A stretch of DNA of 55,526 nt, taken from positions 1 through 55,526 of the forward strand of contig DATJPI010000294.1 in assembly GCA_035506495.1 (NCBI GenBank). Reading direction: 5' to 3'. Numbering within the stretch: position 1 is the stretch's first letter; each line of letters begins with the position of its first letter. The stretch comes from Syntrophales bacterium. Its GTDB lineage: Bacteria > Desulfobacterota > Syntrophia > Syntrophales > UBA2192. The position numbers were made by a program, and so were the translations under genes. The notes under the pieces were generated by a model. That model was given only the letters and a program-made list of their open reading frames with translations, made no database searches and had not been told where the DNA came from. Of this stretch, positions 3,550 to 18,968 are shown piece after piece.

Positions 3550-3574
3550 ACTCGTAACCATTCCTGAAACGAGA

Positions 3575-3733: not shown

Positions 3734-4162
3734 CTAAGTATTAGTTTGGCCGTAAGTACAATAATTGCCGCTAGACCCTGTCCAACAACAGTGGCGATTC
3801 ACGCAAGGGGCGGGACATTGTCCAGACCAGCAATAGGTGGTCACATTCCCAGGGTTGCAACCCTCATTGCAAACATAGCCTGGACCGGCGGAGAGGCCAC
3901 TCCAGCAATCACAGGAAGATGATACGCCGCAAGTACCCGAGCAGCAGGTTCCACTGGGACTGGTGCCGCAGCCCCCGGCGTTGCAACAGCTGCTCCAGGG
4001 GGTGCCGCATCCCCCCGTGCTGCAACACGAGCCAGATGCCCCCGTGCCTGACATGCAGTTTCCGGTCTGCGACCCGTGAGTGGCGCAGGTGTACCCGAGG
4101 GCCGCCTCTCCGCTGCTCAGATGGACAAGCTTTGGTAGTTCATAGGCGAACAATTTTTTCAT
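3734..4162 (-). CDS. Cys-rich RiPP-like precursor paralog A1
   Basis: 142-aa ORF with 21 Cys (4 CC doublets) and a G/S/T-rich composition. Its N-terminus MKKLFAYELPKLVHLSSGE aligns with the leaders of the ORFs at 10168, 10808 and 11321. Confidence 0.7.
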   Translation of the reverse strand: MKKLFAYELPKLVHLSSGEAALGYTCATHGSQTGNCMSGTGASGSCCSTGGCGTPWSSCCNAGGCGTSPSGTCCSGTCGVSSSCDCWSGLSAGPGYVCNEGCNPGNVTTYCWSGQCPAPCVNRHCCWTGSSGNYCTYGQTNT

Positions 4163-4257: not shown

Positions 4258-6063
4258 CTATCCTCCCGCGAGCGGCGTCCCGTCTGTCGTCTTTCCCCCC
4301 TTCAAAACCGTCCGGATCAGATTGTTCCTGACCCTCTTCAAGCCCGGCAGCAGCTCCCCTTCCAGACGCCCATACTCCTCCCTGGCGGCACAGACCATCG
4401 TCGCTGTATCGGATCCCGGTCTTCCCACCCGGTCGAAGAATACGGGGTTGTCGCAACCGATCGGCCGTACTTCCCGGTAGTGTACGCCGGCCTCCTGCAG
4501 CCGCACCCGGTCCGAATAATAAAGCTGGAAGGTTGTAGGCAGGGGCCCCTTTTCACTCACCAGCGATAGGACCGCAAGATGCCGGTGAAGATAGAGCGAT
4601 CCCCACGCCTCCGCCGCGGTATAGAGCGTCGTGATGAAAAGAACATTCAGGGCCAGGGCCGTCAGGGCAACATTTCTTAGAATTCGCAGAATGTTCCCAC
4701 TGACGTAGAAAGAATAGACGATCGCGACGAAGGGCAGGATCCAGGCCTGGGGCACATACCGCGCCCACCACGGCTCCGGAAAGACGAAAATGGTGACGGA
4801 CAGGGCAAGCCCTGCGCCAAGGGCAATGCCAAGGTGGGGGCTATGCCGGAGTGCGGCGACGATCATCATTGCTGCAGCCACGAGAAACGCCCCGCCGAAG
4901 AGCGGTCCCCACCCTCCGATACGCGTATCCGGCGAGAAAAAGGGAATCATCTCCCCGGGGCTCACGGAGAAGGGAATCTTCAGCTCGGGCGGGTCTTGCA
5001 GGCTGTTCATGGAGCGGGAAAAGATAGACACCAGAAATTTCTCGACCCGTGTTTTTTTCAGGAATTCGTCATGAACGTGTCCATCCACGGTGTTCGTCGC
5101 ACCCTCGCCGATGACCCGGTGAAAGGGATTCCCCGTCGAAAGGGTGTTCGTCACATAGGGGTTGTAACCGAAGAGGAAGATGCCGATGAAAAGAATCGCA
5201 CCCGCGTGGAGCAGGGCCCGGCGCATCTCTTTCCGATGCCTGATGATGATCATCAGCACCCAAGCCCCGAGCAGGGACAGGGCATACACGAGCCCCGAGT
5301 ACTTGACATTGATGAGCAGGACGGCGGCCAGGCCTGACGTGAAAAAGTGCAGGCGCGACGGGTTTTTCAGCAGGATCAGAAGCTGCGAAGAAAGAATCAG
5401 GAAAAGCGACGAAAGGGCCCCGTCGACCATGAAAGAAAACATCTGGCAGACGGCAACCGGGTTGAGCGCGAGCAGGATCGCGATTGCATTTCGGGTCCTT
5501 CCATCCAGTCGCTCCAGGGGTTCCAAGGCCGTGCGGACCGAAAAAAAGGAAGCCGCCATCAGGAGGAGATTGATCGCCTTACCCGATTCGATGAGTCCCG
5601 CGGCCTTGTAGATCGTGGCCTGGACGATCCACGCCCCTTTGGGGAAATAGCAAATAAAATCGGGAAACGCAGGAGTAGAGAGGACGACGTCCCGCAGTGG
5701 ATTCCAGCCCCCGGCAAGCGCGACGATAGCCTCCTGGTGGTAGTACTGGCCGTCGCAGGAGGTGTCGAAAAAGAAAAGGGAGACTGCGATGGCACAAAGG
5801 AAGGGAATGCCGAAAAGACCCGCGGAAATAGCCAGCGATACGGGCGACGAGCGGCTATGGGCAGCGCGGATCCGATGATATCCGAAGAGGATGCTCGACA
5901 GGATGCAGAGAAAAAGATTGGCCGATGAAATTACAAAACCGAAGAGGTTCTGCAGCAGGGCGAGCACCACGGCGCAAGCCATGAATATCAGGACCTGCTG
6001 GACCAGGATAAAACCGTAATCCGGCTGGGCGATTTCTTTTCGAGACGGCGTATTAATCGGCAT
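4258..6063 (-). CDS. Large polytopic membrane protein, function unknown (GT-C/polymerase-like topology is a guess)
   Basis: 601-aa ORF with many hydrophobic segments followed by a soluble C-terminal tail of about 100 aa. Its start overlaps the stop of the upstream gene by 11 nt, suggesting translational coupling. Confidence 0.6.
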   Translation of the reverse strand: MPINTPSRKEIAQPDYGFILVQQVLIFMACAVVLALLQNLFGFVISSANLFLCILSSILFGYHRIRAAHSRSSPVSLAISAGLFGIPFLCAIAVSLFFFDTSCDGQYYHQEAIVALAGGWNPLRDVVLSTPAFPDFICYFPKGAWIVQATIYKAAGLIESGKAINLLLMAASFFSVRTALEPLERLDGRTRNAIAILLALNPVAVCQMFSFMVDGALSSLFLILSSQLLILLKNPSRLHFFTSGLAAVLLINVKYSGLVYALSLLGAWVLMIIIRHRKEMRRALLHAGAILFIGIFLFGYNPYVTNTLSTGNPFHRVIGEGATNTVDGHVHDEFLKKTRVEKFLVSIFSRSMNSLQDPPELKIPFSVSPGEMIPFFSPDTRIGGWGPLFGGAFLVAAAMMIVAALRHSPHLGIALGAGLALSVTIFVFPEPWWARYVPQAWILPFVAIVYSFYVSGNILRILRNVALTALALNVLFITTLYTAAEAWGSLYLHRHLAVLSLVSEKGPLPTTFQLYYSDRVRLQEAGVHYREVRPIGCDNPVFFDRVGRPGSDTATMVCAAREEYGRLEGELLPGLKRVRNNLIRTVLKGGKTTDGTPLAGG

Positions 6064-7249
6064 GACGGCTGTTCCATCCGGTCCTGCAGAACTGTCTCAG
6101 GGTCCCTTCCCCATATCTGGCTATCAGCGTCACCGGTCGCAGGAGATAGGCGACAGGAAAGAGATAGTCCGGCAGGGGCGCCGGGTTCCAGTCCCCGAAA
6201 AGAAGGTTCATCGCATATTTTCCGAATAGGCCGAGACGGTCTTGCCGGCGCTCCCGGACGTTCCAGTAAAAAACCATCTCCTTCACGAGCGACACCTGAA
6301 TCCGATGGACGCCCAGCAGCCTGCTCTTGATCCATCTCGCCAGCCGATCGACGGAGGGGTCCTCATCGAGTTCTGTCAGAATGAGACCGGGAAGAACGGG
6401 ACCGAAAAGATCTTCCGCCAATCGAAGGCCGAGACAAAGCATTCGGTGGCTGCCGCAGGCCCGGGAGAGCTTCATGATCCTTGTCCAGTCAAGATCCTCC
6501 TTTTGGCGGATGAGCTCTGCAATGTCATGGGCCCAGATCAACCGCCCCCAGAGATCCTTGCACCCATGGACGCAAAGGACTAGGAGCAACTCCTCCGGAG
6601 GCAGTGTGGGAATCCGGAAATCCCTCGTGCGCAGCGCCTGCCCGTTTTCCCACAGGCCGAGGCGCTCCACGGGAAAAGAGAAATACCCGGGAACGATATT
6701 CCATTGAAGCTCGACGGCAATGGTGCCGCTATCGCGCGAAAGCCCAATCTCGCTATTCCATCGCGTGAAGGTCACGGCCTGGGTTCTCGAAAGCGCCTTT
6801 TCGGGCCTGTAACCCATGGCAACCATGAGATCCCGCGCCCGCAGGACATCGCAGCGCCTTATCAGGATATCCAGGTCATTGAAATGGCGAAGCGCCACAT
6901 TGCCGTAGACGAAATCGGCAAGCGCCGGGCCCTTGTAGGGCATCGCCTTCACCCCGCCGGCCTCGAGGCCCTCGAGGATCTTCAGAAGCGCCGATGTCAG
7001 CCGCAGGCACCTGGCCGAATTGACATGGTAGAGCGCCCGGAGATGATCGTAGAGATCGGCAGGAAAGATGCCGGCAAAATGGATCCTTGCATTTCGATAC
7101 AGAAGGGGCGCAAGGCCGTGCTGCAAAGCGAGGCTCGACAGTTCCTGATGGTCGATGCCCGCCGCAAGGATTTCCGCGACCCGTCTTCTCGCGGACGCGC
7201 CCGGGGACGACTGGGAACCGATCAGGAGAAGTTCGATCTCGGGCTTCAT
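6053..7249 (-). CDS. Uncharacterised nucleotidyltransferase family protein (NTP_transf_5-like)
   Basis: 398-aa ORF. The segment MPYKGPALADFVYGNVALRHFNDLDILIRRCDVLRARDLMVAMGYRP matches the pattern I recall for PF14907-type proteins found in RiPP and lasso clusters. It overlaps the upstream GT2 gene by 4 nt. Confidence 0.65.
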   Translation of the reverse strand: MKPEIELLLIGSQSSPGASARRRVAEILAAGIDHQELSSLALQHGLAPLLYRNARIHFAGIFPADLYDHLRALYHVNSARCLRLTSALLKILEGLEAGGVKAMPYKGPALADFVYGNVALRHFNDLDILIRRCDVLRARDLMVAMGYRPEKALSRTQAVTFTRWNSEIGLSRDSGTIAVELQWNIVPGYFSFPVERLGLWENGQALRTRDFRIPTLPPEELLLVLCVHGCKDLWGRLIWAHDIAELIRQKEDLDWTRIMKLSRACGSHRMLCLGLRLAEDLFGPVLPGLILTELDEDPSVDRLARWIKSRLLGVHRIQVSLVKEMVFYWNVRERRQDRLGLFGKYAMNLLFGDWNPAPLPDYLFPVAYLLRPVTLIARYGEGTLRQFCRTGWNSRHAD

Positions 7250-8256
7250 GGACGTGCTCTCTCCAAACGGGTGCAGGTTGCATGCATATCCGTCAAGGGC
7301 TCAGACCGTTTCATCAGATATGGCTGGAAAATGCGGCGATAGATGCGGGGAATCACGTGAGCGGGGTGGATGGCCAGTGCCGCGGCCATCGTCATGACTG
7401 CTCGAAGACGATTGTGGTCCGCGTAGCGCCGGGCTGCGCGCTGATAGAATTCTTCCCCTGAATCTCTCCGATAAGATTCCACTCTCTCATACCAGGAACG
7501 ACTCCTCCGGAAGGCCAGATATTCATTGAAAGAAGGCTCTTTCAGGCCCGATCGCCTGGCATGGATGCACCGGATGGCCCATTCTCCGTAGAGCCGATTC
7601 ACATTTGGCCGGGCGCCGGAAGAGGAGTTCTCGTGAAACCGATCCAGAACGAGGGATTCCCGCATTTTCAACAACAGATGCTTTTGTTCCGCAAGCCTGT
7701 TCCAGAGATCGGTGTCTTCGGCCTGAACGAATATTTCCCGGTATCCGCCGGCATCCAGGACAGTCTTTCTGTGCATCATGACCGTCGAGTGAATGAAGAA
7801 TAGCGTTTCGTTTCGCCTCACCATCTCTACAAGCTCGGCCTCGCTGAAAGGACCCAGGGATTCCATCGGGACAAGCTGCCCGCCCTGCGCGTCGATCCAG
7901 GTGCCCATGGCGCCCAGGACCCTGATCCTCGGGTTGGCCTCAAGAGCGGCAACCTGCAGCTCCAGTTTGCGGGGCAGGAAAATGTCATCGGCGTCGAGGC
8001 GGGCGACCCACTCGCAGGATGCCTCCATGAGGCAGCGGTTTGCTGCGCCGCTGTGTCCCCTGTTTTCCTGTGTGACGACACGGACGCGGGAATCCTCAGC
8101 GGCATAGGCGCGCATGATCGCGGGGGTTGCGTCCGTTGATCCGTCATCGACGAGGATCAGCTCGAAATCGCGATGCGTCTGGGCCAGCACGCTTTCAATG
8201 GCCTCGGCAAGATAGCGCTCGCCGTTATAGACGGGAATGACGACGGAGACTTCCAT
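7246..8256 (-). CDS. Family 2 glycosyltransferase
   Basis: 336-aa ORF with a classic GT2 N-terminus: VSVVIPVYNGERYLAEAIESVLAQTHRDFELILVDDGSTD, then DADD. Confidence 0.85.
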   Translation of the reverse strand: MEVSVVIPVYNGERYLAEAIESVLAQTHRDFELILVDDGSTDATPAIMRAYAAEDSRVRVVTQENRGHSGAANRCLMEASCEWVARLDADDIFLPRKLELQVAALEANPRIRVLGAMGTWIDAQGGQLVPMESLGPFSEAELVEMVRRNETLFFIHSTVMMHRKTVLDAGGYREIFVQAEDTDLWNRLAEQKHLLLKMRESLVLDRFHENSSSGARPNVNRLYGEWAIRCIHARRSGLKEPSFNEYLAFRRSRSWYERVESYRRDSGEEFYQRAARRYADHNRLRAVMTMAAALAIHPAHVIPRIYRRIFQPYLMKRSEPLTDMHATCTRLERARP

Positions 8257-10063
8257 AGGGAATCACGTTTGCCTTTCTTTCCTTGTCATCCGGGATCAAC
8301 TGTCGCGATACGAGCTCCCGGTAGTAACCGCTGGTCCGCAACAGTTCCTCGTGGGTCCCTTCGGCCACGAGGCAGTTCTCGTTGAGAACGAAGATGCGCT
8401 CGGCATCTACAACCGTGGAGAGCCGGTGAGCCACCAGGAAAAGGGTCTTTCCCTGTGTTGCCTCCGGCAGGGCCTGGAAGAAGGACTCTTCCGTCAGACC
8501 GTCGAGGGCCGAGCTGGGCTCGTCCAGGATGAGGATGTCCGGGTCCATGACGAGGGCCCGGGCAATCGAGAGGCGCTGCTTCTGCCCCTCCGAGAGGTTC
8601 ACTCCTCTCTCGCCGATTTCGCTGTCGTACCCATCAGCGAGGCTTTCGATGAAATCGTGGATGCCTGCGATGCGGGCTGCGCGGCTGACTGCCCCGGTGC
8701 TCGCCTCGGGATTACCGTAGCGCAGGTTCTCCATGATCGTCCCGGTCAGCAGGACAGGGCTCTGGGAGACATAGCCGATCCGGCGCCGCAGGGAGCGAAC
8801 CTCGTAGCTCCCGGCAGGTTTGCCGTCATAGAGGATCTCCCCGCCGGTGGGATTGTAGAATCGGAGCAGCAGGCTCAGAATCGTCGTCTTTCCTGCACCG
8901 CTCGGCCCAACGAGGGCTACCCGTTCGCCCGGTTGGACCCGGAAGGAAATGTCCCGGACAACGGGATTTCCCGGATCGTAGGCGAAGGAAACATCTCTGA
9001 ATTCGACCTCCCCCTTGAGTCTCAGCACCTCTTCACCCTTGCCGACGTTTTCTTCTTCTGCCGCCTCGAAAAGCGCCGAGAGACGCTCCAGCGATGCCCG
9101 GGCCGATTGCATGTTCATGTTCATCGATACCAGAGATTGGGCCGGGCCGAAGACGTAGCCGAGGTAGGCCTGGAAGGCGAACATCGTGCCCAGGCTCCAG
9201 TGGCCGGAGATCACCCAGTAGGCCCCGAGGACGAAAACGATAAAACCGGCAAGGCTGGGCACTGCCGTGATGGCCGTGCCCGCCACGGTCCCGACAGCCG
9301 CCTGTTCCATGGAGAGGCCATTCAGGCGTTTCATCGCCTGGATGATCGTCCCGGAGGCACGATCCTCTGTCGCGAAGGCCTTGATGAGGGGGACCGATGC
9401 AAGGGTCTCCTGGAATCTGCTCCAGAGCCGGGCGCTCTCCTCCCGTTGCGCGTGGCTGAACACGTGCATCCGGCGGGAAAAGTAACGCATCGACAGGACC
9501 ATGGGCGGCAGGGTGAGAACGGCGCAGACGGCAAGACGCCACTCCAGGTAGCACAGCAACACGAAGCCGCCTGCGAATTGAAGGACATTCTGCACGATGG
9601 AAACGATGTTGGCCGAAAAGAAGGCGGTCGCGCCCCCGATGTCGCCGACAAGGCGCGACATGAGATACCCCGTCTGGTTCTTATCGAAAAACGCCTTGGG
9701 GAAACGGAGGACCCGGTCGAGCAGATGGCGCTGGATATCGAGGGTGAACTCCTGGTTGTAGCGAGTCATCCAATAGCCCTGCAGCGGGCCGATGATCCGG
9801 TTCAGTGCGGCAAACCCGACCGAGACAATAACCACGAGAATCAGCAGGTCGAGCCGCTTCCCCAGGATTGCGTCATCGATCGCAAAGCGGCCGATGAGGG
9901 GCTGGGGAAAGGCCATGAGCGAGCTCAAGAGGATGAGCCCGCCGGCGACAGCGCCCTTCTTCCAGTGGCGCCAGAAAAAGGGCAGCAGTCTCCGAAGGCT
10001 CTCCCCGAGCGGGGCATAGGCCTGCCCGGCCGCCATCGGGTCCTCGGGAGCCCGCCTATGCAT
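8225..10063 (-). CDS. ABC exporter, fused permease-ATPase, no C39 peptidase domain
   Basis: An N-terminal transmembrane domain is followed by Walker A GPSGAGKTT, signature LSEGQKQR and Walker B ILILDEPSS. The ORF opens at 10300 but would then overlap precursor A2. In-frame ATGs at 10063 and at 10036 (GAGGA 5 nt upstream) are more plausible starts. Confidence 0.85.
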   Translation of the reverse strand: MHRRAPEDPMAAGQAYAPLGESLRRLLPFFWRHWKKGAVAGGLILLSSLMAFPQPLIGRFAIDDAILGKRLDLLILVVIVSVGFAALNRIIGPLQGYWMTRYNQEFTLDIQRHLLDRVLRFPKAFFDKNQTGYLMSRLVGDIGGATAFFSANIVSIVQNVLQFAGGFVLLCYLEWRLAVCAVLTLPPMVLSMRYFSRRMHVFSHAQREESARLWSRFQETLASVPLIKAFATEDRASGTIIQAMKRLNGLSMEQAAVGTVAGTAITAVPSLAGFIVFVLGAYWVISGHWSLGTMFAFQAYLGYVFGPAQSLVSMNMNMQSARASLERLSALFEAAEEENVGKGEEVLRLKGEVEFRDVSFAYDPGNPVVRDISFRVQPGERVALVGPSGAGKTTILSLLLRFYNPTGGEILYDGKPAGSYEVRSLRRRIGYVSQSPVLLTGTIMENLRYGNPEASTGAVSRAARIAGIHDFIESLADGYDSEIGERGVNLSEGQKQRLSIARALVMDPDILILDEPSSALDGLTEESFFQALPEATQGKTLFLVAHRLSTVVDAERIFVLNENCLVAEGTHEELLRTSGYYRELVSRQLIPDDKERKANVIPYGSLRRHSRL

Positions 10064-10136
10064 TCCCTGCTTCAAATATTGGAACCAGCTGTCCACGTCC
10101 GATCCTACTCTCCGAGGGATATCATGGTTGTCCGGC

Positions 10137-10158
10137 CGGGCATCTACTCGTGTGCCCG
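10137..10158 (-). promoter_or_regulatory. Stem-loop just downstream of precursor A2 (possible partial attenuator or processing site)
   Basis: CGGGCA-N10-TGCCCG lies 10 nt after the A2 stop. No U-tract follows it. Confidence 0.25.
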
Positions 10159-10167
10159 ATTCGCCTC

Positions 10168-10584
10168 TCAATAACTCGCGCCGCTGCCGCTCCTGCACAT
10201 TTGAGCTTGGCCGGATCCGGCCCAGCATAACGTACAACTGCCGCCCCGGGCTGTTTCGCCGCAACTGCAAGTCCGGCCAGCGTCGCCGCCCATATCGCAT
10301 TCAGCGCCGTCGTACCCTCCGGCAGCGCACATGTGGTCACCGCCTCCGTAACAGCAAGGGGCGCCGTCGCAGCTGCCCGTGCAGCACGCGATGTTGTAGC
10401 AACTGCCGGTACAACAGTATGCGTAGCCAGGGATTGTGCCTGAGCAACAGTAATACGTCGGCACATTGCCTCCATAGCAACTACCCCATTGTGCATGGGA
10501 GCCGGTGCTGCAATCCGCCCCGCGGGCCGTCTTTTCTCCCGAAAGGCTGATAAGCTTCGGGATCTCGTACTTGAATTTCATCAT
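10168..10584 (-). CDS. Cys-rich RiPP-like precursor paralog A2
   Basis: 138-aa ORF with 19 Cys (4 CC doublets). Leader is MMKFKYEIPKLISLSGEKTARGADCSTGSHA. AAGAAGG lies just upstream of the ATG pair. Confidence 0.75.
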   Translation of the reverse strand: MMKFKYEIPKLISLSGEKTARGADCSTGSHAQWGSCYGGNVPTYYCCSGTIPGYAYCCTGSCYNIACCTGSCDGAPCCYGGGDHMCAAGGYDGAECDMGGDAGRTCSCGETARGGSCTLCWAGSGQAQMCRSGSGASY

Positions 10585-10807
10585 GCCTTCTTTTCGTCAT
10601 TCACTTCCTTCATCAAACTGCGCACCGATAAGAGATAAATGCAGAATTGCCCCCAATCCTGAATACACAAAACCAGGGAAACTATGTATAGTTAGCCTGC
10701 TATCCGGTCCTCAGGTGCCTTCCTCGCCAGGCCGTCCCTTAAATATTCAAGCCAATGTTTCATCCTTCTTATCCTTGACGGCTCTCATTGCTGGAAGGAC
10801 CGCATCT

Positions 10808-11224
10808 CTAAACTGAATTACCGGTCGAGCAAGATCCTGCGTGCGTTCCGTACTGGCAACTTGTGGCATTAGCCCCGTAACTATAGCAAGTACACATGAC
10901 CGGATTACTGCTCCCATACCCGCACGGGTATTGCTGCGGATTCGCGCCGGATCCGCAATTAGCCGAATCGCAGTACCCCGAGCAGCAAACTGCACCCGTG
11001 CAGGCCCCGCAGTAGCAGGCGTCGGGACAGGCCCCCGTGCAGCATGTCAGGACAGTACCGCCGGTCCCGGTGCTGCAACAGGTTGTCGCAACATTGCCAT
11101 TTTTACAAGTCGTGCTGGCATGCGACCCCGTCGCGCAAGCCGCCCCGTGTGCCGTCTGCTCACCCGAGAGAATAATGAATTGGGGGGGGGCGTACTTGAA
11201 TTTCAATGTGTCTCCAGTCAGCAT
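10808..11224 (-). CDS. Cys-rich RiPP-like precursor paralog A3
   Basis: ORF with 19 Cys (3 CC doublets). Leader is KFKYAPPQFIILSGEQTAHGAACATGSHA. By alignment with A2 and A4, the likely true start is the TTG at 11206, which is preceded by GGAGA. Confidence 0.75.
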   Translation of the reverse strand: MLTGDTLKFKYAPPQFIILSGEQTAHGAACATGSHASTTCKNGNVATTCCSTGTGGTVLTCCTGACPDACYCGACTGAVCCSGYCDSANCGSGANPQQYPCGYGSSNPVMCTCYSYGANATSCQYGTHAGSCSTGNSV

Positions 11225-11320
11225 GTTTATCGGTGTATCGTCAGCCTGCCATCCGGTCCCTCGGCGCTGGCGTTGCTAGCCCTCTCGGACTTTTTTCTTT
11301 ATTAAAGGTTGCACGCTGCG

Positions 11321-11740
11321 TCACGCACTTGGGCCGTTTGAACACGGCGTCCATCTGCCATCCATGCCCCCGTTGCCTATGCAAGTGCCGGAAGGCCAGG
11401 CCCCATAATAATTGCAAGCGCAGAAGTAACGATCGCTCCATCCATAGAAACACGATTGGCCCAGCGGACTCCCCCCCGCAGTGCAATCATACCCGTCGCA
11501 GACCCCGGTGCAGCAGCTGGCATAAGTGGAGGCGCAGCCCCCGCAGACGCAAGGGTTGGGACAGTTCCCCGTGCAGCATGTCACCACAGCACCACCGGTT
11601 CCGGTACTGCAACAGGTCGACGCTACATTGCCGGTCTTGCACGTACCGGTGGCATGGGAGCCCGTTGCGCAATCCGCCCCGCGGGCCGTCCGTTCACCGG
11701 ACAGAATAACCAGTTTGGGGGGTTCGTATTTAGATTTCAT
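11321..11740 (-). CDS. Cys-rich RiPP-like precursor paralog A4
   Basis: ORF with 19 Cys (3 CC doublets). Leader is MKSKYEPPKLVILSGERTARGADCATGSHA. I chose the ATG at 11740 (GGAG 6-7 nt upstream). The track ORF opens at a GTG at 11767 that overlaps the upstream stop. The 5' half is clearly similar in DNA to A3. Confidence 0.75.
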   Translation of the reverse strand: MKSKYEPPKLVILSGERTARGADCATGSHATGTCKTGNVASTCCSTGTGGAVVTCCTGNCPNPCVCGGCASTYASCCTGVCDGYDCTAGGSPLGQSCFYGWSDRYFCACNYYGAWPSGTCIGNGGMDGRWTPCSNGPSA

Positions 11741-11763
11741 CTTCAGCTCCGTTGTACTGCCGC

Positions 11764-12756
11764 TCACCGTACCGCTGCCTCCATCTCTTCCCAGAAGCGC
11801 CCATCGATGCTCGCACGCAGCCGGAAGGCCGGAATCGACCGGGCAAGCCCGCAGGCGTTGTCAAATATCATGGTTTTCGATGTTCGTCTTTCCCCGGGGG
11901 CAAGGTCCCTCCAGAAGGACAGGCAGATCTGCGATGCCGCTTCGATCACACTTGCAGCCGCCTCTCCTTTCCCGATTGGTGCCATTTCGTCCTTTGTCCC
12001 CTGCTCCAGGAAGAAGATCGCCTCCAACGGCAGTGAACACTGGACGTCCCAAATCTGTTCTGACCGCCTCCACATATAATCGCTCCAGGTCGGAAACGGG
12101 TGGGCCCGATAGTTCCCTTTTTCGTCGACCACGACGAGGGACAGGTCGTCGCTGAGGGCTCTCCATGGCCCAGGGATCCTCCTGCAGCAGGTGGATTTCC
12201 CCGTTCCACCGGGGGCTGAAATGAGAAAGCCCCTACCCTCACGCTCGATCAGGGCGGCATGAATCGGAAGCCCCCCCTCTTGCATGGCACGGAAATAGAT
12301 CGGGCAGAGGGCCTGCCCCATCTGCAGGATTTCCAGCTCATGGCTGCGGTCTCCCGCCATCTCGCAGACGACGCCGGGCAAGCCGGGGTGTACCCAGAAA
12401 CGGAGGGAAGGCAGCTCATAAGACTTCCAGCCATCGGAAGGGAGGTCCCTCAAAACGCCCTCGCCATCCCGGGACGGAATCCACTGCCGCAAGTCCATGA
12501 GCCTTTCCTCCCGGACGAACAGGAGTTTCGGGTTCCCGTTGGGCTTGCACGGTTTGAGCCGCATGATCGTAGCGAGTTTCCCCGCCCACGGACCGGCGTC
12601 CCCCGTTGCCACGATTTCCCAGCTCTGGCCGTTGCCCAGTCTCAGCAGGTATCGCACTTCTCCGTCGGTCTTCGGGGAGCGGCTGCTCTCGGGCCCGTAC
12701 CTTTCGGAAATGATCACGCTAGCTCCCGGCACTTTGCTCCCCCCGGTTCCTGACAT
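11764..12756 (-). CDS. HPr-kinase-related P-loop protein (ScmC-like / HprK-related kinase-like)
   Basis: 330-aa ORF. LPIHAALIEREGRGFLISAPGGTGKSTCCRRI matches the HAA...G.G.L..G.SG.GKST pattern of HprK-like kinases seen in RiPP clusters. Confidence 0.6.
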   Translation of the reverse strand: MSGTGGSKVPGASVIISERYGPESSRSPKTDGEVRYLLRLGNGQSWEIVATGDAGPWAGKLATIMRLKPCKPNGNPKLLFVREERLMDLRQWIPSRDGEGVLRDLPSDGWKSYELPSLRFWVHPGLPGVVCEMAGDRSHELEILQMGQALCPIYFRAMQEGGLPIHAALIEREGRGFLISAPGGTGKSTCCRRIPGPWRALSDDLSLVVVDEKGNYRAHPFPTWSDYMWRRSEQIWDVQCSLPLEAIFFLEQGTKDEMAPIGKGEAAASVIEAASQICLSFWRDLAPGERRTSKTMIFDNACGLARSIPAFRLRASIDGRFWEEMEAAVR

Positions 12757-13418
12757 GCTTTACCGACGGTGTCCGTCAACAATCTCTCATCCACGATCAG
12801 ACGATAAGGCCGCCGGATCACCCATCCTTCGCCCTCCATGCATCGCCCGATCACCCGCCGTCCCATGAGGATCTGCATATCCGTCCCGTCCGGCCGCCCG
12901 AACGTGACAACCGTCGGCGTCATCGATGCAGGCAGCAGCCGCCCCAGCAAACCCTTCCGTGACAGCCAACGGTAAAGGGGATGGAGCAGATTTGATATGA
13001 CGACGTCAAGGCGCTCCAACTTTAGAACGAGACTCGCCTGGAGCCGCCCCGCCATCCCGCGGTGGACGGCATGCTTTTTCCCATCCCGTTCGAAGGATAC
13101 GACGCGCCCCATGATCTCTTCCCCTGCGAGGACCCAGGGATCGGGGCGGTCGCTCGCGTCGCCCTTCGTATGAATCCTGCCCGCTGTCTTATCGATCACC
13201 CGGTGGACCACCAGGCGCTCTTCGCCCGACGGTCTGAAAACGATGACGTCGCCCCGGCGGATATCCCGCACAGGACAGGAAATGAGTTTCAAGCAATCAC
13301 CCGGCTGAAAGAAGGGAGTCATGGAGGAGCCGTGATAAAAGACCCCCCCCTGCCGATTCTCCCGAGGAAAAGGCGACGGATGATCACGTTCGTCGTTGCC
13401 GATCTGAAGTCCCGTCAT
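12714..13418 (-). CDS. S24/S26-family (signal peptidase I-like) serine peptidase, candidate leader peptidase
   Basis: 234-aa ORF with the motifs GSSMTPFFQPGD (Ser nucleophile box), RRGDVIVF and VVHRVIDK. The His at the usual Lys position resembles SipW/Sec11-type enzymes. Confidence 0.6.
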   Translation of the reverse strand: MTGLQIGNDERDHPSPFPRENRQGGVFYHGSSMTPFFQPGDCLKLISCPVRDIRRGDVIVFRPSGEERLVVHRVIDKTAGRIHTKGDASDRPDPWVLAGEEIMGRVVSFERDGKKHAVHRGMAGRLQASLVLKLERLDVVISNLLHPLYRWLSRKGLLGRLLPASMTPTVVTFGRPDGTDMQILMGRRVIGRCMEGEGWVIRRPYRLIVDERLLTDTVGKACQEPGGAKCRELA

Positions 13419-13476: not shown

Positions 13477-14541
13477 CTATTCGGCAGAGCATGCCCCCGT
13501 TGCGACTCGTTGTTCCCGGATCGCGCGCAATTCTCTCCGGGGATTCTCCCCATCGCACATTCCCGGCAGGGTATGGAAACCCAGGCAGCCGCCGCTGCAT
13601 CTCCTTTCCACTTTTTCGACGCACGTTACACAACACGCCTGGCAGGAAAGGCCCTGCGCGCGGACCTGTTCCTGGAAATACGTCTGTAGCCGAAAAAGAT
13701 TCCCGAATGAGAGAAGATCCGTTTTGAATTTCGACAGTGGAAAACAGGGCCAGGCCTCGAGTCCAGGGCCGATATCCACCATGAAGTGATCGCAGGTTGA
13801 GCGGAATTTTCTCGAATCCGCGGCCGTAACGGGCATCGCACAGCGGGGAATCGAATGACAGTCGATTCCATAAGAGACTCCGTTCTGCAGGAGGACCCGA
13901 AACCAGACATCGAGGAGATCCATCAGCTCCGCGTAGCGATTCAACGGGATGTACCGGGAAACTCCGTCCGCCGGAACGGCGATCTGAAACTGGATCAGTG
14001 GACGGAGCGAATACTTCATGATCAGCATGAGTCGATCGACAATCGGGTAACAGTCCCCGCGGTCGATGTCCGACTCGGTAATGGTGTAGCCCAGCATGAC
14101 CCGATGCCCGACCCGGCGAAGAAAGTCTTCCACCCGCCGTCTCTTGGGGACCGGATAATGGAAATGGGATGTGCTGTTCAGGCCAAACGTCAGGTCTGGG
14201 AATTTCATGGCAGCGATTTGATCGAGCAGCGCCTTCGAGCATATTCCCGTCGTGCTGACATGGACCGAAAAGGACCTGGACCGAAGCAGTTCCAAAATGT
14301 CCATAAACCGAGTGTGCAGAAGGGGTTCCCCCCCCAGGAGAATCATCCGGCTCAAACCGGAGGACTCGTAGAATTTGACAACGGATTCAAAGTCCGCAAA
14401 ATGCATCTCGGCGATCCCCCGGGAATGGTACTCTGCCATCTTCGCCCGGGCGAAACACCACGGACAGGAATTCACACACTTCGCAGTCAGCATGACTGTC
14501 GGCATGACGATGAGCATCCTCCGTCTGTTCTGCACGAACAC
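13477..14541 (-). CDS. Radical SAM protein with atypical SPASM/twitch-like C-terminus
   Basis: 354-aa ORF with CVNSCPWC (CX3CX2C) near the N-terminus. The C-terminal Cys cluster CDHF..GLEAWPC ... CQACCVTCVEKVERRCSGGC has non-canonical spacing. Confidence 0.75.
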   Translation of the reverse strand: MFVQNRRRMLIVMPTVMLTAKCVNSCPWCFARAKMAEYHSRGIAEMHFADFESVVKFYESSGLSRMILLGGEPLLHTRFMDILELLRSRSFSVHVSTTGICSKALLDQIAAMKFPDLTFGLNSTSHFHYPVPKRRRVEDFLRRVGHRVMLGYTITESDIDRGDCYPIVDRLMLIMKYSLRPLIQFQIAVPADGVSRYIPLNRYAELMDLLDVWFRVLLQNGVSYGIDCHSIPRCAMPVTAADSRKFRSTCDHFMVDIGPGLEAWPCFPLSKFKTDLLSFGNLFRLQTYFQEQVRAQGLSCQACCVTCVEKVERRCSGGCLGFHTLPGMCDGENPRRELRAIREQRVATGACSAE

Positions 14542-14592: not shown

Positions 14593-15759
14593 TCACACCG
14601 CAGCCATCCCTGCGACTGCGGTGCCCCCGACACCCGCAGCGGCCCGTTCCCGCAACCCCGACTTGATCCGCGACTCGGGGAAGAGGCCCTTCGCTCTAGC
14701 CTCCTCGCAAAACCAGTATCCCGCCCAGAGTCTCCCGTCCCGATAATAGTTCTGGGCAACGCAGCTCCCCAGGCACATGCCCTTCATAATGCAGTCCGCG
14801 CAGATCCCCTCGAGACGGCCCGGAAGACCCTCGCGCAGTTCCTTCAGGACAGGCGAGTTCAGCCAGACATCGCTCAGCGCATCCTTTGCAGCGTGTCCGA
14901 AGACGAGTTCAGGGACCGTTGTACCTATCCCGCAGAGCGCATAGGTGCCGTCGGAGAGTACCCCGATGATCCCGAAAATATTGCAGAGCCCGCAGGAACC
15001 CTTGTCGCCGAAGATATTCCCCATGGACCGGAAGGCCATGGGATGGCTCGAGTAGAGAGGGATGACCACCTGTTTCGACAGGGTGTTTTCGACCCAACGG
15101 CCCAGCTCTACCAGCTCTTCGATAGGCAGGGTCTCCCCGGCCTCGTGCATCTTCTCGCCCCGGGCCGTGGGCTGGACGAAGTTGAACTTCACCGACGCGG
15201 CGCCGATCGATTCCGCCAGCCGCACCAGGGCCTCCATCTGGCCGACATTTCGCCGCATGATGGACATGATGACCTGCGGCCGGATGCCTGCGTCGACGAG
15301 GTTGCGGATTCCCTGCAGAGTCGCCTCGAAGGAGCCTTCCACGCCCCGGACCCACTCGTGGGTCTGCGCATCAGCGCCGTCAAGGCTGACGGCGACGAAC
15401 GGCTGCCCGCATGCGGCAATGCGCCGCGCCAGATCGGCCGTGCACAGAACACCGTTCGTTTCGACGGTCAGGCGGAGCTTCTCCTCACGTACGATATCGA
15501 CGATCTCAGCGATCTGCGGGTGAAGGAGCGGCTCGCCGCCCGTCAGCTTCACACATTCAAGCCCCAGGGGCTTGGCCTGGGAAAGAATGGAGCGGAAGAG
15601 ATGGACGTCCAGTGCCGGGTATTTCTTCCCCCCTCCCTGGAACTTCGGCTCGATCCAGCAGTGGCGACAGCGAAGATTGCACCCTTCCGTCAAGTAAAAA
15701 TAGATAGCCCCCAGCTGATAGGTGCGCTCACGGGGTCTTTCCGATGTTCCGTTCGGCAC
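14593..15759 (-). CDS. Radical SAM/SPASM domain protein (PqqE-like peptide maturase)
   Basis: Has CNLRCRHC (CX3CX2C) and a canonical SPASM motif: CNIFGIIGVLSDGTYALC plus CADCIMKGMCLGSC (CX2CX5CX3C). The track ORF opens at 15873 and overlaps the upstream gene by 100 nt. The GTG at 15759 follows the upstream TGA and a GAAAGGAGAG Shine-Dalgarno sequence, so I chose it. Confidence 0.85.
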   Translation of the reverse strand: MPNGTSERPRERTYQLGAIYFYLTEGCNLRCRHCWIEPKFQGGGKKYPALDVHLFRSILSQAKPLGLECVKLTGGEPLLHPQIAEIVDIVREEKLRLTVETNGVLCTADLARRIAACGQPFVAVSLDGADAQTHEWVRGVEGSFEATLQGIRNLVDAGIRPQVIMSIMRRNVGQMEALVRLAESIGAASVKFNFVQPTARGEKMHEAGETLPIEELVELGRWVENTLSKQVVIPLYSSHPMAFRSMGNIFGDKGSCGLCNIFGIIGVLSDGTYALCGIGTTVPELVFGHAAKDALSDVWLNSPVLKELREGLPGRLEGICADCIMKGMCLGSCVAQNYYRDGRLWAGYWFCEEARAKGLFPESRIKSGLRERAAAGVGGTAVAGMAAV

Positions 15760-15773
15760 GACACTCTCCTTTC

Positions 15774-17456
15774 TCAGGGTTCTCTTTCTTCTCTTTTTTG
15801 GGACATCCTTCCGATGGCCGCGTCGACGTCGACACGGAACAGGTAAAAATTGCTGTTGCAACTGGTCTGGCAACTCGATGCCATGGGAAATGTCCGGTAA
15901 CTTTCCTTGTCATAGGGATTCCCCCACCGGGCGACAAGGGCCGGACCGGCGCTCCAAAGATAAAGGTTGCTGACGTTATGTTCCTGCAGGGTCTGAAGGA
16001 TCCTTTCGAAGTCGACTTCCTGCGGGGCAACCAGATAAGCGCGCTCGAAGAAAAGCGGACCTGCGTGCTCCATCAGCGGGGCGCCTGTGAATACGACGAC
16101 ATCCCCCTTTGCCGAGTTCTGTTCCAGGAAGGCGACGCGCCTGGCGTTGTAGTCGGTGTATTTCATGAAGGGATCCTTTACCCACTCGTATCCACCGGCG
16201 ATGGAGACGGCCACCGCAAAAACCAAAAGGCCCGAAACCGCCGGAGCTGCAAATATCCTCCGGCTCTCGATGCCCATAACGACGATAGCGACAGGAATGA
16301 CCGGCAGATAGAAGAGGCGGACATAATCCGACTCGTTTTTCAGCACAGTAGCGACCTGGGTGAGACAGAGCAGAATAGCGGCTGAGAGGATCAGGCCGAG
16401 AAGAACTTTCTCTTTCTTGATGGCATCGAAAAAACTCGCAGGCAGGCCCCAGAAAGCGAACAGCAGTGTTGGGAACAGTAACAGGAAGGGGATCAATGAA
16501 AAACGGGCCGACGTGACGAGGACAACGGCAGACAGAAGCAACAGGGAAACAAACCACGCTCCCGCCATCGGAAAGTTCGGCAATGACCCCTTTTGTGCTT
16601 CGCACAAAAGCGCCGCCGAGAGGACAAAAGCCCCCAGAAAGATCAGAACTCGGATCGGGGAAAGGGCGAGCCAGGGTGCGAGAGATTCAAGGTACGGCCC
16701 GGGAAAGGCGCCGTAGAGCATGGCCTCCGAGACCATCCAGAGCACCGCAGCCGCGGCGGCCCCAGCCGCGAACAGACCCGCTTCACGCGATTTTTTCCCG
16801 GCTGCGAGCAAAGAGGTGCCGGCGATTGTCCAGGCCGCGGCCATGAAGAGAAACGCCGGGCATAAGAAGAGAGTCAGGCCCATTGAGAACGATGATCCGA
16901 AGAGGATCATGGGCGCCTGTTTGATACAGACATATCGAACGATCCCGTACAGGGCCAACGCCTCCAGGAAGAGAGCCGCCGTGACCTCGGAGAACCCGAA
17001 GATATTCAGGGCAACGGGAGATCCCAGAAAGGCAAGCAGAAGGAGATACTGCAGCACACTCCTTTCCATGACGAGACCGAGGGCCATTTTGAGCATGATC
17101 GCCGTAAGAAAAAAGAACGCCAGCGGAAGAAGGTGCACCGCCCGGTCACCGAACAGCGGGTAGAAGAGGCTCGTCAAAAAGGGAAACAGCGGCGGTGTGA
17201 TCGCCCGGAGCTCGCCCCTCTTGGATTCGAAGTAACCCGGTTCTTTCGTCAGATCGTCGGCCGTGAATCCCATCTGCTGCGCCGGATAAGGAATGGAGAG
17301 GGAGCCATGCAGGGCGAAGTTCTTCATCTGGACGAACTTGGCGCCTTCCTCGTTCGAGTAGAGCCCCAGCGACGGCAAGTGAAAGAACAACGCTGCGAGC
17401 GCCACGAACAGGGTAATGAAGAAGATTGTCTCGTATTTTGAGAGCCGGTTCAGCAT
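15774..17456 (-). CDS. Polytopic membrane protein, ArnT/PMT-like (GT-C fold) glycosyltransferase candidate
   Basis: 560-aa ORF with more than 10 hydrophobic segments, an acidic first loop (YSNEEGAKF) and a soluble C-terminal domain. The family assignment is by overall architecture only. Confidence 0.5.
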   Translation of the reverse strand: MLNRLSKYETIFFITLFVALAALFFHLPSLGLYSNEEGAKFVQMKNFALHGSLSIPYPAQQMGFTADDLTKEPGYFESKRGELRAITPPLFPFLTSLFYPLFGDRAVHLLPLAFFFLTAIMLKMALGLVMERSVLQYLLLLAFLGSPVALNIFGFSEVTAALFLEALALYGIVRYVCIKQAPMILFGSSFSMGLTLFLCPAFLFMAAAWTIAGTSLLAAGKKSREAGLFAAGAAAAAVLWMVSEAMLYGAFPGPYLESLAPWLALSPIRVLIFLGAFVLSAALLCEAQKGSLPNFPMAGAWFVSLLLLSAVVLVTSARFSLIPFLLLFPTLLFAFWGLPASFFDAIKKEKVLLGLILSAAILLCLTQVATVLKNESDYVRLFYLPVIPVAIVVMGIESRRIFAAPAVSGLLVFAVAVSIAGGYEWVKDPFMKYTDYNARRVAFLEQNSAKGDVVVFTGAPLMEHAGPLFFERAYLVAPQEVDFERILQTLQEHNVSNLYLWSAGPALVARWGNPYDKESYRTFPMASSCQTSCNSNFYLFRVDVDAAIGRMSQKREEREP

Positions 17457-18592
17457 GCTGCCTCCTGTCTCGCCTGACCGATCAGGAGCGACCGATCCGG
17501 CAGTTTTCCGCCGTCGGACAGGAAATTCCGGAGGCAGGAATCCGGGGCGGGATGGTTCACCTCACCCGTTATTGTGTAGGCAAGCCCCGCGCAGCTTCCC
17601 GTGCAATAGGGGATGTAGTCACACCCCTGGCAGAAGGCAAACGTGCTCAAGGCAATGAGATTGCGCTCTCGCAGGGTCTTCAAGGCGATGTGGTTTTGCC
17701 AGATATCACGAAGGCTGTCTCGGTTGACCCGGCCCAGCTCGATATGGGAGAGCATGGTGCAGGGTGTGATGGCCCCGTCAGACCGTACGGCCAACTGGCT
17801 TGAATAGCAGCCGCAGCCTGTGAGGCTGCCCCGATTGGGCAAAGACGGTACCCCTGCCTCTCTTGCCGCCGCCATCTCCAGCCAGCCCCGCGCCTCGGCC
17901 AAGGGTCCCGCCATGGCGCTGATCCGGTCACCATACCTCCCTGTCAGCTTAAGAAGGGTTTCCATCGCGAGCATGCGATCTTCCGTTGTGAGCTGCACCA
18001 GCTCGGCGTTCTTGCGGCAAAGCCCGAGAAGCCCCGCAGAATTGGTACCGAAGCTCGGCAGGCCCAGCTCCTCAAGAAGAAAATGAGCTATGCTTTCCAG
18101 GTCGTGAACATTTTTGCGGTGAATGGTTACGCGAATGGCGATGTTCACACCATGCCGCTGAAGTTTCCGGATACCCTCGACAGCCTTCCGGAAGCTGCCG
18201 TTTCCGCGGAATGCATCGTGGGTGGTCGGGACGGATCCATCGATAGAGACCTGCACATATTCGCACCGCCTGGTGGAAGCCAGATACGATGCCATCTCGT
18301 CGGTGATCAGCGTGCCGTTGCTGAGGATGGAAAAGCGCATGCGGTTCCTGACAATGCCCTCCAGGATCTCCCGGAGATCTTCCCGGATGAAGGGCTCGCC
18401 GCCCGCCAGGGTCAGGTTCATGACGGCGCAGCGATTGAGCTCCTCGAAGAATGGCAGCCACCCTTCCAGGGGCAGGTCCTCGCCCGCATCCTCGGAACTC
18501 TCGAAGTGGTAACAGTAGCGGCACCGCAGATTGCAGCGGTTGGTAATAGCGATATCCAGCTTTTTCGGAGTTTTCATCAGTGACATGGACAT
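17450..18592 (-). CDS. Radical SAM/SPASM domain protein (PqqE-like peptide maturase)
   Basis: Has CNLRCRYC and a canonical SPASM motif: CYSSQLAVRSDGAITPC plus CQGCDYIPYCTGSC. The track ORF opens at 18742 inside the PqqD gene. ATGs at 18592 and 18586 lie just after the PqqD TAG and an AAGGTG Shine-Dalgarno sequence. Confidence 0.88.
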   Translation of the reverse strand: MSMSLMKTPKKLDIAITNRCNLRCRYCYHFESSEDAGEDLPLEGWLPFFEELNRCAVMNLTLAGGEPFIREDLREILEGIVRNRMRFSILSNGTLITDEMASYLASTRRCEYVQVSIDGSVPTTHDAFRGNGSFRKAVEGIRKLQRHGVNIAIRVTIHRKNVHDLESIAHFLLEELGLPSFGTNSAGLLGLCRKNAELVQLTTEDRMLAMETLLKLTGRYGDRISAMAGPLAEARGWLEMAAAREAGVPSLPNRGSLTGCGCYSSQLAVRSDGAITPCTMLSHIELGRVNRDSLRDIWQNHIALKTLRERNLIALSTFAFCQGCDYIPYCTGSCAGLAYTITGEVNHPAPDSCLRNFLSDGGKLPDRSLLIGQARQEAAC

Positions 18593-18599
18593 CACCTTG

Positions 18600-18968
18600 C
18601 TAAATCCGGTTCTCCTGCCCGCCTGTTGCCTCATAACCCACAAGCCCCTGCGTCTCGAGACCGCGGATGAATTCGCCGACGTGCTGTTGCGCATCCTCGG
18701 GAACATCCGTCGCCTCATTTCGCAGCTCTCGGACAATGTCATCCGGGCTGTGATTCCCGTCGAGAAGCTTCCAGATGAAAACCCCCGTCGGGTTCAGGCC
18801 GAAGGCATTGCCCGTGTCGGGATCGAACAGAATGGCCCAGTCATCGAATTCCTCGCGGAGAACGATGAGTGGATTGGCATACGCGTTTCTTTGTTCCACG
18901 GCTGTTTCCTTTCTTAAAGGGTGGGATCCCGTCGCTCGGCACTCCTCACTGTCAGGGCCGCCCCCCAT
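18600..18968 (-). CDS. PqqD-family protein (RiPP recognition element)
   Basis: 122-aa ORF. The C-terminal part WAILFDPDTGNAFGLNPTGVFIWKLLDGNHSPDDIVRELR fits the PqqD family. It lies immediately upstream of a radical SAM/SPASM gene. The exact start is uncertain. Confidence 0.75.
   Translation of the reverse strand: MGGGPDSEECRATGSHPLRKETAVEQRNAYANPLIVLREEFDDWAILFDPDTGNAFGLNPTGVFIWKLLDGNHSPDDIVRELRNEATDVPEDAQQHVGEFIRGLETQGLVGYEATGGQENRI

Follow-up and report, generated by a model that had tools for sequence, protein, structure and literature searches.

The stretch analysed here (hereafter the window) is 55,526 nt of DNA from a Syntrophales bacterium (assembly GCA_035506495.1, contig DATJPI010000294.1). 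It contains an array of open reading frames (ORFs) that runs from position 18968 down to 3734, all on the minus strand, and comprises a complete SynChlorMet (SCM) cassette together with four genes for Cys-dense proteins, A1-A4 (Table 1). ScmC, ScmD, ScmE and ScmF all exceed their NCBIfam cut-offs and are encoded on one strand within 7.3 kb. The first-pass annotation had described A1-A4 as paralogous precursors of a RiPP (a peptide made by the ribosome and modified after translation), with a conserved leader and a diversifying core. This reading is supported by the setting of the ORFs inside a cassette of radical S-adenosylmethionine (rSAM)/SPASM enzymes, a PqqD-type protein, a kinase, a peptidase and an ABC transporter, and also by the conservation of the leader across taxa, by purifying selection, and by natural fusions of the recognition domain with the precursor. 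We consider it very likely that A1-A4 are the ScmA-type precursors of the SCM cassette, and their identity as ScmA-type proteins, taken on its own, we hold with greater confidence still.

All four ORFs were found where they had been reported, and the hand counts of Cys agree with the machine counts, as does the figure of three to four CC doublets per ORF (Table 1). The strings quoted from the translations are also present: CKNGNVATTCCSTGTGG in A3, CKTGNVASTCCSTGTGG in A4, and STCC, VTCC and ASCC all in A4. The description of the proteins as poor in charged residues fits A1 and A3 (8 and 7 D/E/K/R in total) but less so A2 and A4 (18 and 17). Cys makes up about 14% of the residues of A1-A4, the sequence is Gly/Ser/Thr-rich and of low complexity, and neither a signal peptide nor a transmembrane (TM)-like segment was found in any of the four. 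A tblastn search with A1-A4 against the whole window detected these four paralogs and none further. A3 and A4 are about 60% identical at the protein level, A2 is about 40% identical to both, and A1 is the most distant (31-36% to the others, by tblastn). At the DNA level A3 and A4 share a repeat of 206 nt with 78% identity, and a 90-nt leader segment occurs in three copies in the tandem genes A2-A4 with 70-76% identity. The paralogy stems from old rather than recent duplications. Translation starts of A3 and A4 were judged from upstream ribosome-binding sites of the GGAG type: A3 probably begins at TTG 11206, so that it reads MKFKY like A2, and A4 probably at ATG 11740 (139 aa), while the GTG-extended ORF of A4 begins at, and overlaps, the stop codon of ScmC. 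In A2 a GAAGG ribosome-binding site lies just 5' of the ATG.

Table 1. Features of the minus-strand array in the window, and ScmD-ScmA fusion genes at other ScmC loci
Feature	Position	Strand	Description
A1	3734..4162	-	ScmA-like precursor, the most divergent of the four paralogs; 142 aa, 21 Cys, 4 CC, 10 CxxG modules; last gene of the array
A2	10168..10584	-	ScmA-like precursor; 138 aa, 19 Cys, 4 CC, 12 CxxG modules
A3	10808..11224	-	ScmA-like precursor; 138 aa, 19 Cys, 3 CC, 10 CxxG modules
A4	11321..11767	-	ScmA-like precursor; 148 aa from GTG, 19 Cys, 3 CC, 9 CxxG modules
ScmC	11764..12756	-	HPr-kinase-like P-loop protein, putative precursor-peptide kinase; TIGR04249 291 bits (cut-off 125); GenBank HTZ40887.1
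S26 (signal-peptidase-I-like) peptidase	12714..13418	-	TIGR02228 59 bits (cut-off 51.85); GenBank HTZ40888.1
rSAM3, third radical-SAM enzyme	13477..14541	-	PF04055 46 bits; no curated equivalog; Cys-rich C-terminus
ScmF	14593..15873	-	radical SAM/SPASM maturase; TIGR04251 599 bits (cut-off 400)
MemGT, glycosyltransferase (GT)-like polytopic membrane protein	15774..17456	-	13 TM-like segments; similarity to LA_3751/LA_3752 putative glycosyltransferase, 88.5 bits, sub-threshold (cut-off 200)
ScmE	17450..18742	-	radical SAM/SPASM maturase; TIGR04250 589 bits (cut-off 400)
ScmD	18600..18968	-	PqqD-family RiPP recognition element; TIGR04248 126 bits (cut-off 100), PF05402 65 bits; first gene of the array
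ABC exporter	8225..10300	-	permease and ATPase; likely start ATG 10063
GT2, family-2 glycosyltransferase	7246..8256	-	PF00535 129.5 bits
NTP_transf_5 nucleotidyltransferase	6053..7249	-	PF14907 189 bits
Polytopic membrane protein	4258..6063	-	11 TM-like segments
GC-rich hairpin	3575..3603		11 pairs; separates A1 from the convergent lactate-transporter gene
ScmD-ScmA fusions, locus L001	5496-6176, 6618-7265		PqqD domain and precursor in one polypeptide
ScmD-ScmA fusion, locus L002	7863-8492		PqqD domain and precursor in one polypeptide
ScmD-ScmA fusion, locus L003	7619-8332		PqqD domain and precursor in one polypeptide
ScmD-ScmA fusions, locus L085	7873-8604, 10001-10675		PqqD domain and precursor in one polypeptide
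ScmD-ScmA fusion, locus L087	1915-2577		PqqD domain and precursor in one polypeptide

The leader of A1-A4 is about 22 aa long; in A1, A2 and A4 it contains a Y-x-x-P-x-L motif, which reads YxxPxF in A3, and a conserved A-x-G stands one to three residues ahead of the first Cys. Of 97 family sequences, 80 have a distance of 18-20 residues between the leader Tyr and the first Cys, and 89 have a small-x-[GA] motif ahead of the first Cys. Each core of A1-A4 contains 9-12 C-x-x-G motifs, mostly spaced by 9-13 residues; shuffled sequences give three to four, and the observed count was reached in at most 16 of 5000 shuffles. When the family is pooled, the module reads C-x-[TSN]-G-[STN]-x-A-x-x-x, with a length of about 10 residues and a spacing of exactly 10 in 135 of 196 canonical intervals. 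Cys and Gly are its sole fixed residues; at position +4, Ser, Thr or Asn is found in some 65% of the canonical modules and some 55% of the Cys-dense ones, and Asn, Gly or Ala in many modules. The Cys-dense members possess the same module with surplus Cys (about nine per protein beyond one per module), mostly at module positions +1, +5 and +9, which accounts for the CC doublets. The C-terminal tail after the last Cys comprises 6-8 residues in canonical members and in A1-A4 alike, and therefore the functional unit appears to be one Cys with the following 6-7 residues; the final module retains only C-x-x-G-x-x(-x).

NCBIfam/TIGRFAMs already lists both the system and its family of precursors, the latter as ScmA (TIGR04252), and by homology A1-A4 are divergent, approximately threefold elongated, Cys-dense, multi-module outliers of that family. 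The first-pass annotation had proposed a profile search with the leader beyond the source genome. A profile of A1-A4 and two first matches, run against 1.84 billion proteins, retrieved 114 representative clusters (E <= 1e-3), all of which carry the leader (K)Y-E-x-P-x-L-(I/V)-x-L ... A-x-G-x-x-C. At one end of their range are peptides of 48-110 aa with 3-7 Cys, at the other Cys-dense proteins of 100-140 aa. The family hidden Markov model (HMM) recognises A1, A2, A3 and A4 with E-values of 4e-21, 7e-35, 2e-37 and 5e-36, respectively, and ORFs that it recovers themselves match TIGR04252: among the short family members adjoining ScmC elsewhere, that of locus L024 reaches 38.5 bits and thus exceeds the cut-off (35), and others score 17-28 bits. 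When the N-terminal 54 aa were compared with TIGR04252, A4 and A3 scored 20.9 and 16.2 bits over model positions 1-47, and A1 and A2 gave no match. An hhalign comparison of 13 Cys-dense with 22 canonical ScmA sequences resulted in a probability of 98.6% (E 1.1e-15) over 61 columns, spanning the leader and the first three Cys modules. A word-indexed protein search with A3 alone found only two relatives, so that an exhaustive profile search was needed, and a scan of metagenomic DNA with the Cys-dense alignment found only the source organism and one related strain. Canonical ScmA proteins encoded next to ScmC (47-90 aa, 2-7 Cys, no CC doublet; the curated model has 49 positions) share with A1-A4 the leader K-Y-E-x-P-x-L ... 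A-x-G, the 10-residue C-x-x-G-[STN]-x-A modules and the tail of 6-8 residues. A1-A4 differ from them in length (132-142 aa in this comparison), in the number of Cys (19-21) and of modules (9-12), in the extra Cys at +1/+5/+9, and in being present in four copies downstream of ScmC, whereas the canonical gene lies upstream.

In order to establish how tightly the family is linked to the cassette, we searched one genome per GTDB species with an alignment of 20 ScmC proteins, which yielded 80 ScmC loci (numbered with the prefix L), and ran the family HMM on all six-frame ORFs within 10 kb on either side; many of these loci are incomplete stretches. Among the lineages represented are Desulfobacterota, Aminicenantes, Omnitrophota, Chlorobi, Brocadiaceae, Saganbacteria, Calditrichaeota, Methanocella and Methanothrix. 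A precursor homolog is present in 63 of the 80, in 45 of them within 700 nt upstream of ScmC and on the same strand, and of the 17 loci without a homolog 9 end less than 1.1 kb upstream of ScmC. The similarity of the leaders thus is not explained by recent duplication, as the first-pass annotation had considered it might be, since the leader is kept in bacteria as well as archaea and is linked with the enzymes encoded beside it. Among the other cassette genes the S26 peptidase is found in 59 loci, ScmD and ScmF in 53 each, ScmE in 50, the ABC exporter in 25 and NTP_transf_5 in 20. In the 80 genomes the precursors that adjoin ScmC contain 2-14 Cys and nearly all are without a CC doublet, and A1-A4 have the highest Cys content of all precursors recovered. 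On the contig of another homolog, P0007, ScmC is followed by three small genes, P0007 among them. Some loci contain two or three ScmC paralogs interleaved with several precursor genes (L029 4566-5432, 7532-8395 and 10045-10944; L046 5223-6188 and 7743-8615; L073 7062-7934 and 10001-10873), which hints at a pairing of kinases with precursors.

Homologs of rSAM3 were found only beside long or Cys-dense precursors, although the sample is small, and this distribution suggests that the enzyme is specialised for Cys-dense cores. One homolog (42% identity) is encoded in L029, which has three copies of ScmC and seven family ORFs, namely six precursors (94-129 aa, 7-14 Cys) and one read-through ORF. 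Others (47% identity) occur in L085/L086, together with two ScmD-ScmA fusions (16-17 Cys), the ABC exporter, a MemGT homolog and ScmC; neither ScmE nor ScmF was found there within 10 kb. The MemGT homolog lies beside the ABC gene in L085/L086, and further homologs are present in L060 and L063.

The fused form, in which the PqqD domain and the precursor constitute one polypeptide, is not restricted to these loci. We found it in several organisms, including the homologs P0002 and P0013, about 15 further cluster representatives, and the ScmC loci L001, L002, L003, L085 and L087 (Table 1). The N-terminal domains of the fusions score 99-107 bits on the ScmD model, and JGI labels the proteins merely as "ScmD". 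A RiPP recognition element (RRE) supplied in cis on its substrate is unusual. One of the fusion ORFs (L085 7873-8604, plus strand) was missed by the gene caller, which called a 162-aa gene on the opposite strand (7777-8265) instead, a mis-annotation of the same kind as that of A1-A4 in the window.

The AlphaFold2 (AF2) model of the P0002 fusion has a predicted local distance difference test score (pLDDT) of 75-93 in the PqqD domain and about 56 in the linker, 86 and 71 in the leader motif, which forms a short strand, and about 30 in the Cys core. In a model of A3 alone the leader reaches 61-70 and the core 31-39, the core being without secondary structure. That the leader is modelled with high confidence in the fusion would agree with its docking onto the PqqD domain in cis, and the best fold matches of this model in the PDB are lasso B1 proteins with a bound leader (5v1v and 6jx3, TM-score 0.76-0.80, target-normalised). 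The second-best sequence family of ScmD is likewise the lasso PqqD chaperone, and one ScmA leader gave a weak match to lasso_leader_L3 (E 0.022). Y-x-x-P-x-L at positions -17 to -12 is the leader motif of lasso peptides (PMC10368454).

In an alignment of 20 ScmC proteins H166, G186-K187-S188-T189 and D203 are invariant and D204 nearly so, and the spacing of 21 residues between His and Lys equals that of the H-G-G-G-K-S-D-D motif of lasso precursor kinases. The characterised lasso precursor kinases act on a Ser of the core, with strong stimulation by the RRE, and in the lasso bsf cluster a predicted nucleotidyltransferase (bsfN) accompanies the HPr-kinase-like gene (PMC10368454). A sequence search of the PDB revealed no relatives of ScmC or rSAM3. 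Among solved structures, ScmE comes closest in sequence to the sactisynthase SkfB (E 2e-20), with CteB (5wgg) also among the matches, and ScmF to BlsE, PqqE and SkfB. By its frequency the S26 peptidase is part of the core cassette; it lacks a TM-like segment and contains SMTP at 32 and HRV at 72. Type I signal peptidases require small residues at -3/-1, and because the conserved A-x-G before the first Cys fits this rule, we propose the S26 enzyme as the candidate leader peptidase. No peptidase domain was matched in the ABC exporter, which is consistent with a separate leader peptidase.

These assignments can be combined into a tentative pathway. ScmD would bind the YxxPxL leader as a beta-strand and present the disordered core to ScmE and ScmF, which would modify the module Cys, probably with the assistance of rSAM3. 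The chemistry of this step may be the formation of one short-range thioether per module, between the Cys sulphur and a carbon of the residue 3-6 positions downstream, a proposal to which we give roughly an even chance. ScmC would phosphorylate a Ser or Thr, the soluble S26 peptidase would remove the leader after A-x-G, and the ABC transporter would export a product of approximately 115 residues, which GT2 or the GT-like proteins may glycosylate. The product is thus most likely an exported, leader-cleaved, multiply crosslinked miniprotein. Its crosslinks are probably thioethers, which we place ahead of other linkages because the module has no fixed residues besides Cys and Gly and because the nearest solved structure to ScmE by sequence is that of SkfB. 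Of the three products suggested in the first-pass annotation, the crosslinked miniprotein is accordingly favoured, and the disulfide-knotted and metallothionein-like readings, for which there is no positive support, might still apply to the approximately nine surplus Cys.

Purifying selection argues that A1-A4 are genuine genes. A codon-level comparison of A3 and A4, which had been proposed as a check, reveals constraint in the annotated frame: dN/dS (the ratio of nonsynonymous to synonymous substitution rates) among A3, A4 and the metagenomic homolog P0001 is 0.18-0.37, an approximate range with dS of about 1 or more. The first 60 codons give 0.17-0.21 and the remainder, where computable, 0.34-0.43, the distal segment of A3/P0001 being saturated. 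The remark that the C-terminal half diverges likewise holds, as dN between A3 and A4 amounts to 0.15 over the first 60 codons but to 0.63 over those that follow. In a related strain (L084) the order of ScmC followed by a Cys-dense precursor is kept, with 90% identity in ScmC and 61% in the precursor, so that the precursor diverges more rapidly than the enzyme, a behaviour typical of RiPP cores. None of A1-A4 has an exact match in a collection of 15 billion proteins, and homology searches of 5.8 billion clusters returned no self-hit; the contig itself is in the collection, so no gene-calling pipeline recorded them. Long antisense ORFs (140-207 aa) lie over A2, A3 and A4 (10128-10550, 10841-11305 and 11456-12079, plus strand); the codon composition of Cys and Gly probably gives rise to them, and they are, along with the atypical codon usage, a likely reason why gene finders skip A1-A4. 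The same three observations, i.e. the absence from gene calls, the antisense ORFs and the codon usage, could be taken to mean that A1-A4 are chance open frames in GC-rich DNA whose true features lie on the opposite strand. We regard this as scarcely credible and have rejected it, given a dN/dS below 0.4, homologs in many phyla with conserved Cys/Gly columns, conserved synteny with ScmC, ribosome-binding sites ahead of A2, A3 and A4, and the fact that the sense frame is the sole stop-free frame across each gene, every alternative frame having at least one stop per gene.

Several results weigh against parts of the picture drawn above. Full-length A1-A4 do not match TIGR04252 even at E <= 10, and by the curators' own criterion, the cut-off of 35 bits, they are non-members. 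The dN/dS values were obtained near saturation of dS, and the synonymous-codon score of A1-A4 (-0.08 to +0.01, as compared with +0.19 for the confident genes of the window) is not clearly better than that of one antisense frame. The disorder of the core in the AF2 models rests on shallow alignments of 13-17 sequences. In L002 and L003, which within 10 kb on either side of ScmC contain ScmC, the S26 peptidase and a ScmD-ScmA fusion, no radical-SAM gene was detected in that range; either the maturases are encoded elsewhere, or these loci represent a sub-type that uses the kinase and peptidase only. With respect to chemistry, the closest characterised relatives of ScmF are heme (AhbD)/NirJ, BlsE and PqqE-type enzymes, and ScmE also resembles WgkB, so that C-C crosslinking or another radical chemistry is possible.

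These enzyme relationships also lend support to the alternative that the rSAM enzymes form C-C or C-O crosslinks, epimerise residues or convert Cys, and that Cys serves in the product as disulfide partner or as ligand of a metal (Fe-S, Cu or Zn). It would further account for the approximately nine Cys beyond the one-per-module set, and Gly +3 and Ala +6 are conserved in addition to Cys. We nevertheless consider it rather unlikely, because Cys defines every module across bacteria and archaea, down to the final module with its C-x-x-G-x-x(-x), because ScmE has a sactisynthase as its nearest solved structure, and because neither a pattern of His/Asp/Glu ligands nor a match to a metallothionein family was found. 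A lanthionine-like product, in which ScmC would phosphorylate the Ser/Thr at +4, elimination would give dehydroalanine or dehydrobutyrine and the module Cys would add to it while the rSAM enzymes tailor the product otherwise, is more doubtful by far. Phosphorylation followed by elimination is the established chemistry of class III/IV lanthipeptides, ScmC retains the kinase active-site motif, and the frequency of Ser/Thr/Asn at +4 given above would suit such a route. What makes it improbable is that no lyase or cyclase domain occurs among the cluster ORFs, that two or three rSAM/SPASM enzymes belong to the core of the cassette, that a ring from C(i) to (i+4) in that direction would be unusual, and that +4 is so often Asn, Gly or Ala. 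A conventional lanthipeptide system was rejected as well, as we found among the cluster ORFs no dehydratase/lyase or cyclase of the LanB/C, LanM, LanKC or LanL type, the only related component being a stand-alone HPr-kinase-like protein.

A further explanation, according to which A1-A4 are unmodified Cys-rich small proteins, disulfide-knotted or metallothionein-like, and mere neighbours of the cassette, finds some support in a composition that is loosely reminiscent of metallothioneins in its Cys content and its Gly/Ser/Thr-rich low complexity. We judge it very improbable: the N-terminus is a ScmA leader, which stands beside ScmC in most of the genomes with the cassette and is fused to ScmD in several organisms, the proteins lack a signal peptide or TM-like segment, and AF2 predicts no fold, although the last point is weak evidence against an autonomous fold. 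The first-pass annotation had named a match to a metallothionein or structural family as a finding that would speak against a RiPP; scans of Pfam and NCBIfam gave none. Metallothioneins were rejected on the same grounds (no match in these databases, and a pLDDT of the core of about 30-39 in AF2). A1-A4 have in common with them the high Cys content of a small protein, and differ in the lack of a family match and of a predicted fold, and in the presence of a RiPP leader within a maturase operon.

We also compared A1-A4 with sactipeptides and ranthipeptides (SkfA/SkfB, SCIFF/CteB, freyrasin/PapB). The systems share a leader, a Cys-containing precursor and rSAM/SPASM maturases, which here are linked to the precursor by genetic association only, and the repeated short Cys motifs of A1-A4 resemble the repeats of freyrasin-type ranthipeptides. 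The cores of A1-A4 are, unlike those of the known representatives, several times longer and composed of about 10 modules, the recognition element of SCM is separate or fused to the precursor rather than contained in the rSAM enzyme, and SCM has two or three rSAM enzymes in addition to a kinase and an S26 peptidase. The lasso module appears to share with the window the YxxPxL leader, a PqqD-like RRE (ScmD), the motif of an HPr-kinase-like kinase, NTP_transf_5 and the ABC exporter. The core differs in being Cys-modular and without a macrolactam ring signature, and the candidate leader peptidase here is the S26 enzyme. Lasso peptides as such were rejected, since neither a cyclase (Asn-synthetase homolog) nor a B2 protease was matched among the ORFs of 3.7-19 kb.

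As compared with the usual SCM cassette, the one in the window additionally possesses a third rSAM enzyme, GT2, NTP_transf_5 and two large membrane proteins. The Cys-dense ScmA proteins, rSAM3 and the GT-like membrane protein might define a distinct SCM sub-class that makes a miniprotein of approximately 115 residues with at least 10 enzyme-installed crosslinks and further Cys-Cys or Cys-carbon links; we put this forward tentatively, as a possibility that we think less likely true than false. The gene set of the sub-class recurs beside the ScmD-ScmA fusions in L085/L086 without ScmE/ScmF, and both rSAM3 and the GT-like membrane protein appear to go along with high Cys density. If the sub-class exists, its product would surpass every characterised sactipeptide and ranthipeptide by far in size and in density of crosslinks. 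It might carry sugar or phosphate groups, and certain lineages would make it with the recognition domain in cis; a poly-thioether miniprotein would stretch the size range of rSAM-crosslinked RiPPs. In a search of the literature we found no publication on the SynChlorMet cassette or its chemistry. New here are the extreme multi-module Cys-dense form, its module grammar and the ScmD-ScmA fusions, as well as, apparently, the link of the Cys-dense form to the third rSAM enzyme and the GT-like membrane protein. The ScmA family is thereby extended to 10-module proteins of about 140 residues with 21 Cys, and as gene callers and the curated HMM both miss the Cys-dense forms, genome mining that relies on them under-counts it. 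The system is widespread in anaerobes: ScmC clusters number more than 925 and come from Desulfobacterota, Aminicenantes, Omnitrophota, Chlorobi, anammox bacteria, Methanocella and Methanothrix. The grammars of the module (C-x-x-G-[STN]-x-A, period 10) and of the leader (YxxPxL ... A-x-G) make the predicted sites of crosslinks, RRE contacts and peptidase cleavage directly testable.

As called, the ORF of the ABC exporter overlaps A2 by 133 nt; a start at ATG 10063 removes the overlap and gives a protein of 612 aa, in agreement with the 610-617 aa of its homologs, of which those in L001 and L085 (57-58% identity) adjoin precursor fusions. A pair of GT2 (52% identity) and NTP_transf_5 (43%) genes is present downstream of ScmC also in another Syntrophales metagenome-assembled genome (L065, 12760-14882), so this add-on is not unique to the window; the precursor of that locus has 101 aa and 8 Cys. 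The polytopic membrane protein at 4258-6063 gave no family match and no homolog in the other ScmC loci.

A scan for promoters and terminators detected nothing above the expectation from shuffled sequences except the hairpin at 3575-3603, which probably marks the end of the array, and a scan of 3000-19500 against Rfam revealed no RNA family. A 49-nt non-coding element is present in two copies with 71% identity, one 5' of A3 (11234-11282, minus strand) and one in the spacer between A3 and A2 (10685-10733); it has no Rfam match, and could be a promoter, operator or processing site. On either side of the array the genes appear unrelated to the cassette. An L-lactate transporter of the SfMCT type from the major facilitator superfamily (2299-3549, plus strand, 367 bits) is encoded beyond the hairpin, and the region 19142-23801 (plus strand) contains FAD-oxidoreductase-like, acyl-CoA-dehydrogenase-like and two electron-transfer-flavoprotein-like ORFs, as read by eye from the translations without a family scan. 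Such genes fit a syntrophic degrader of fatty acids.

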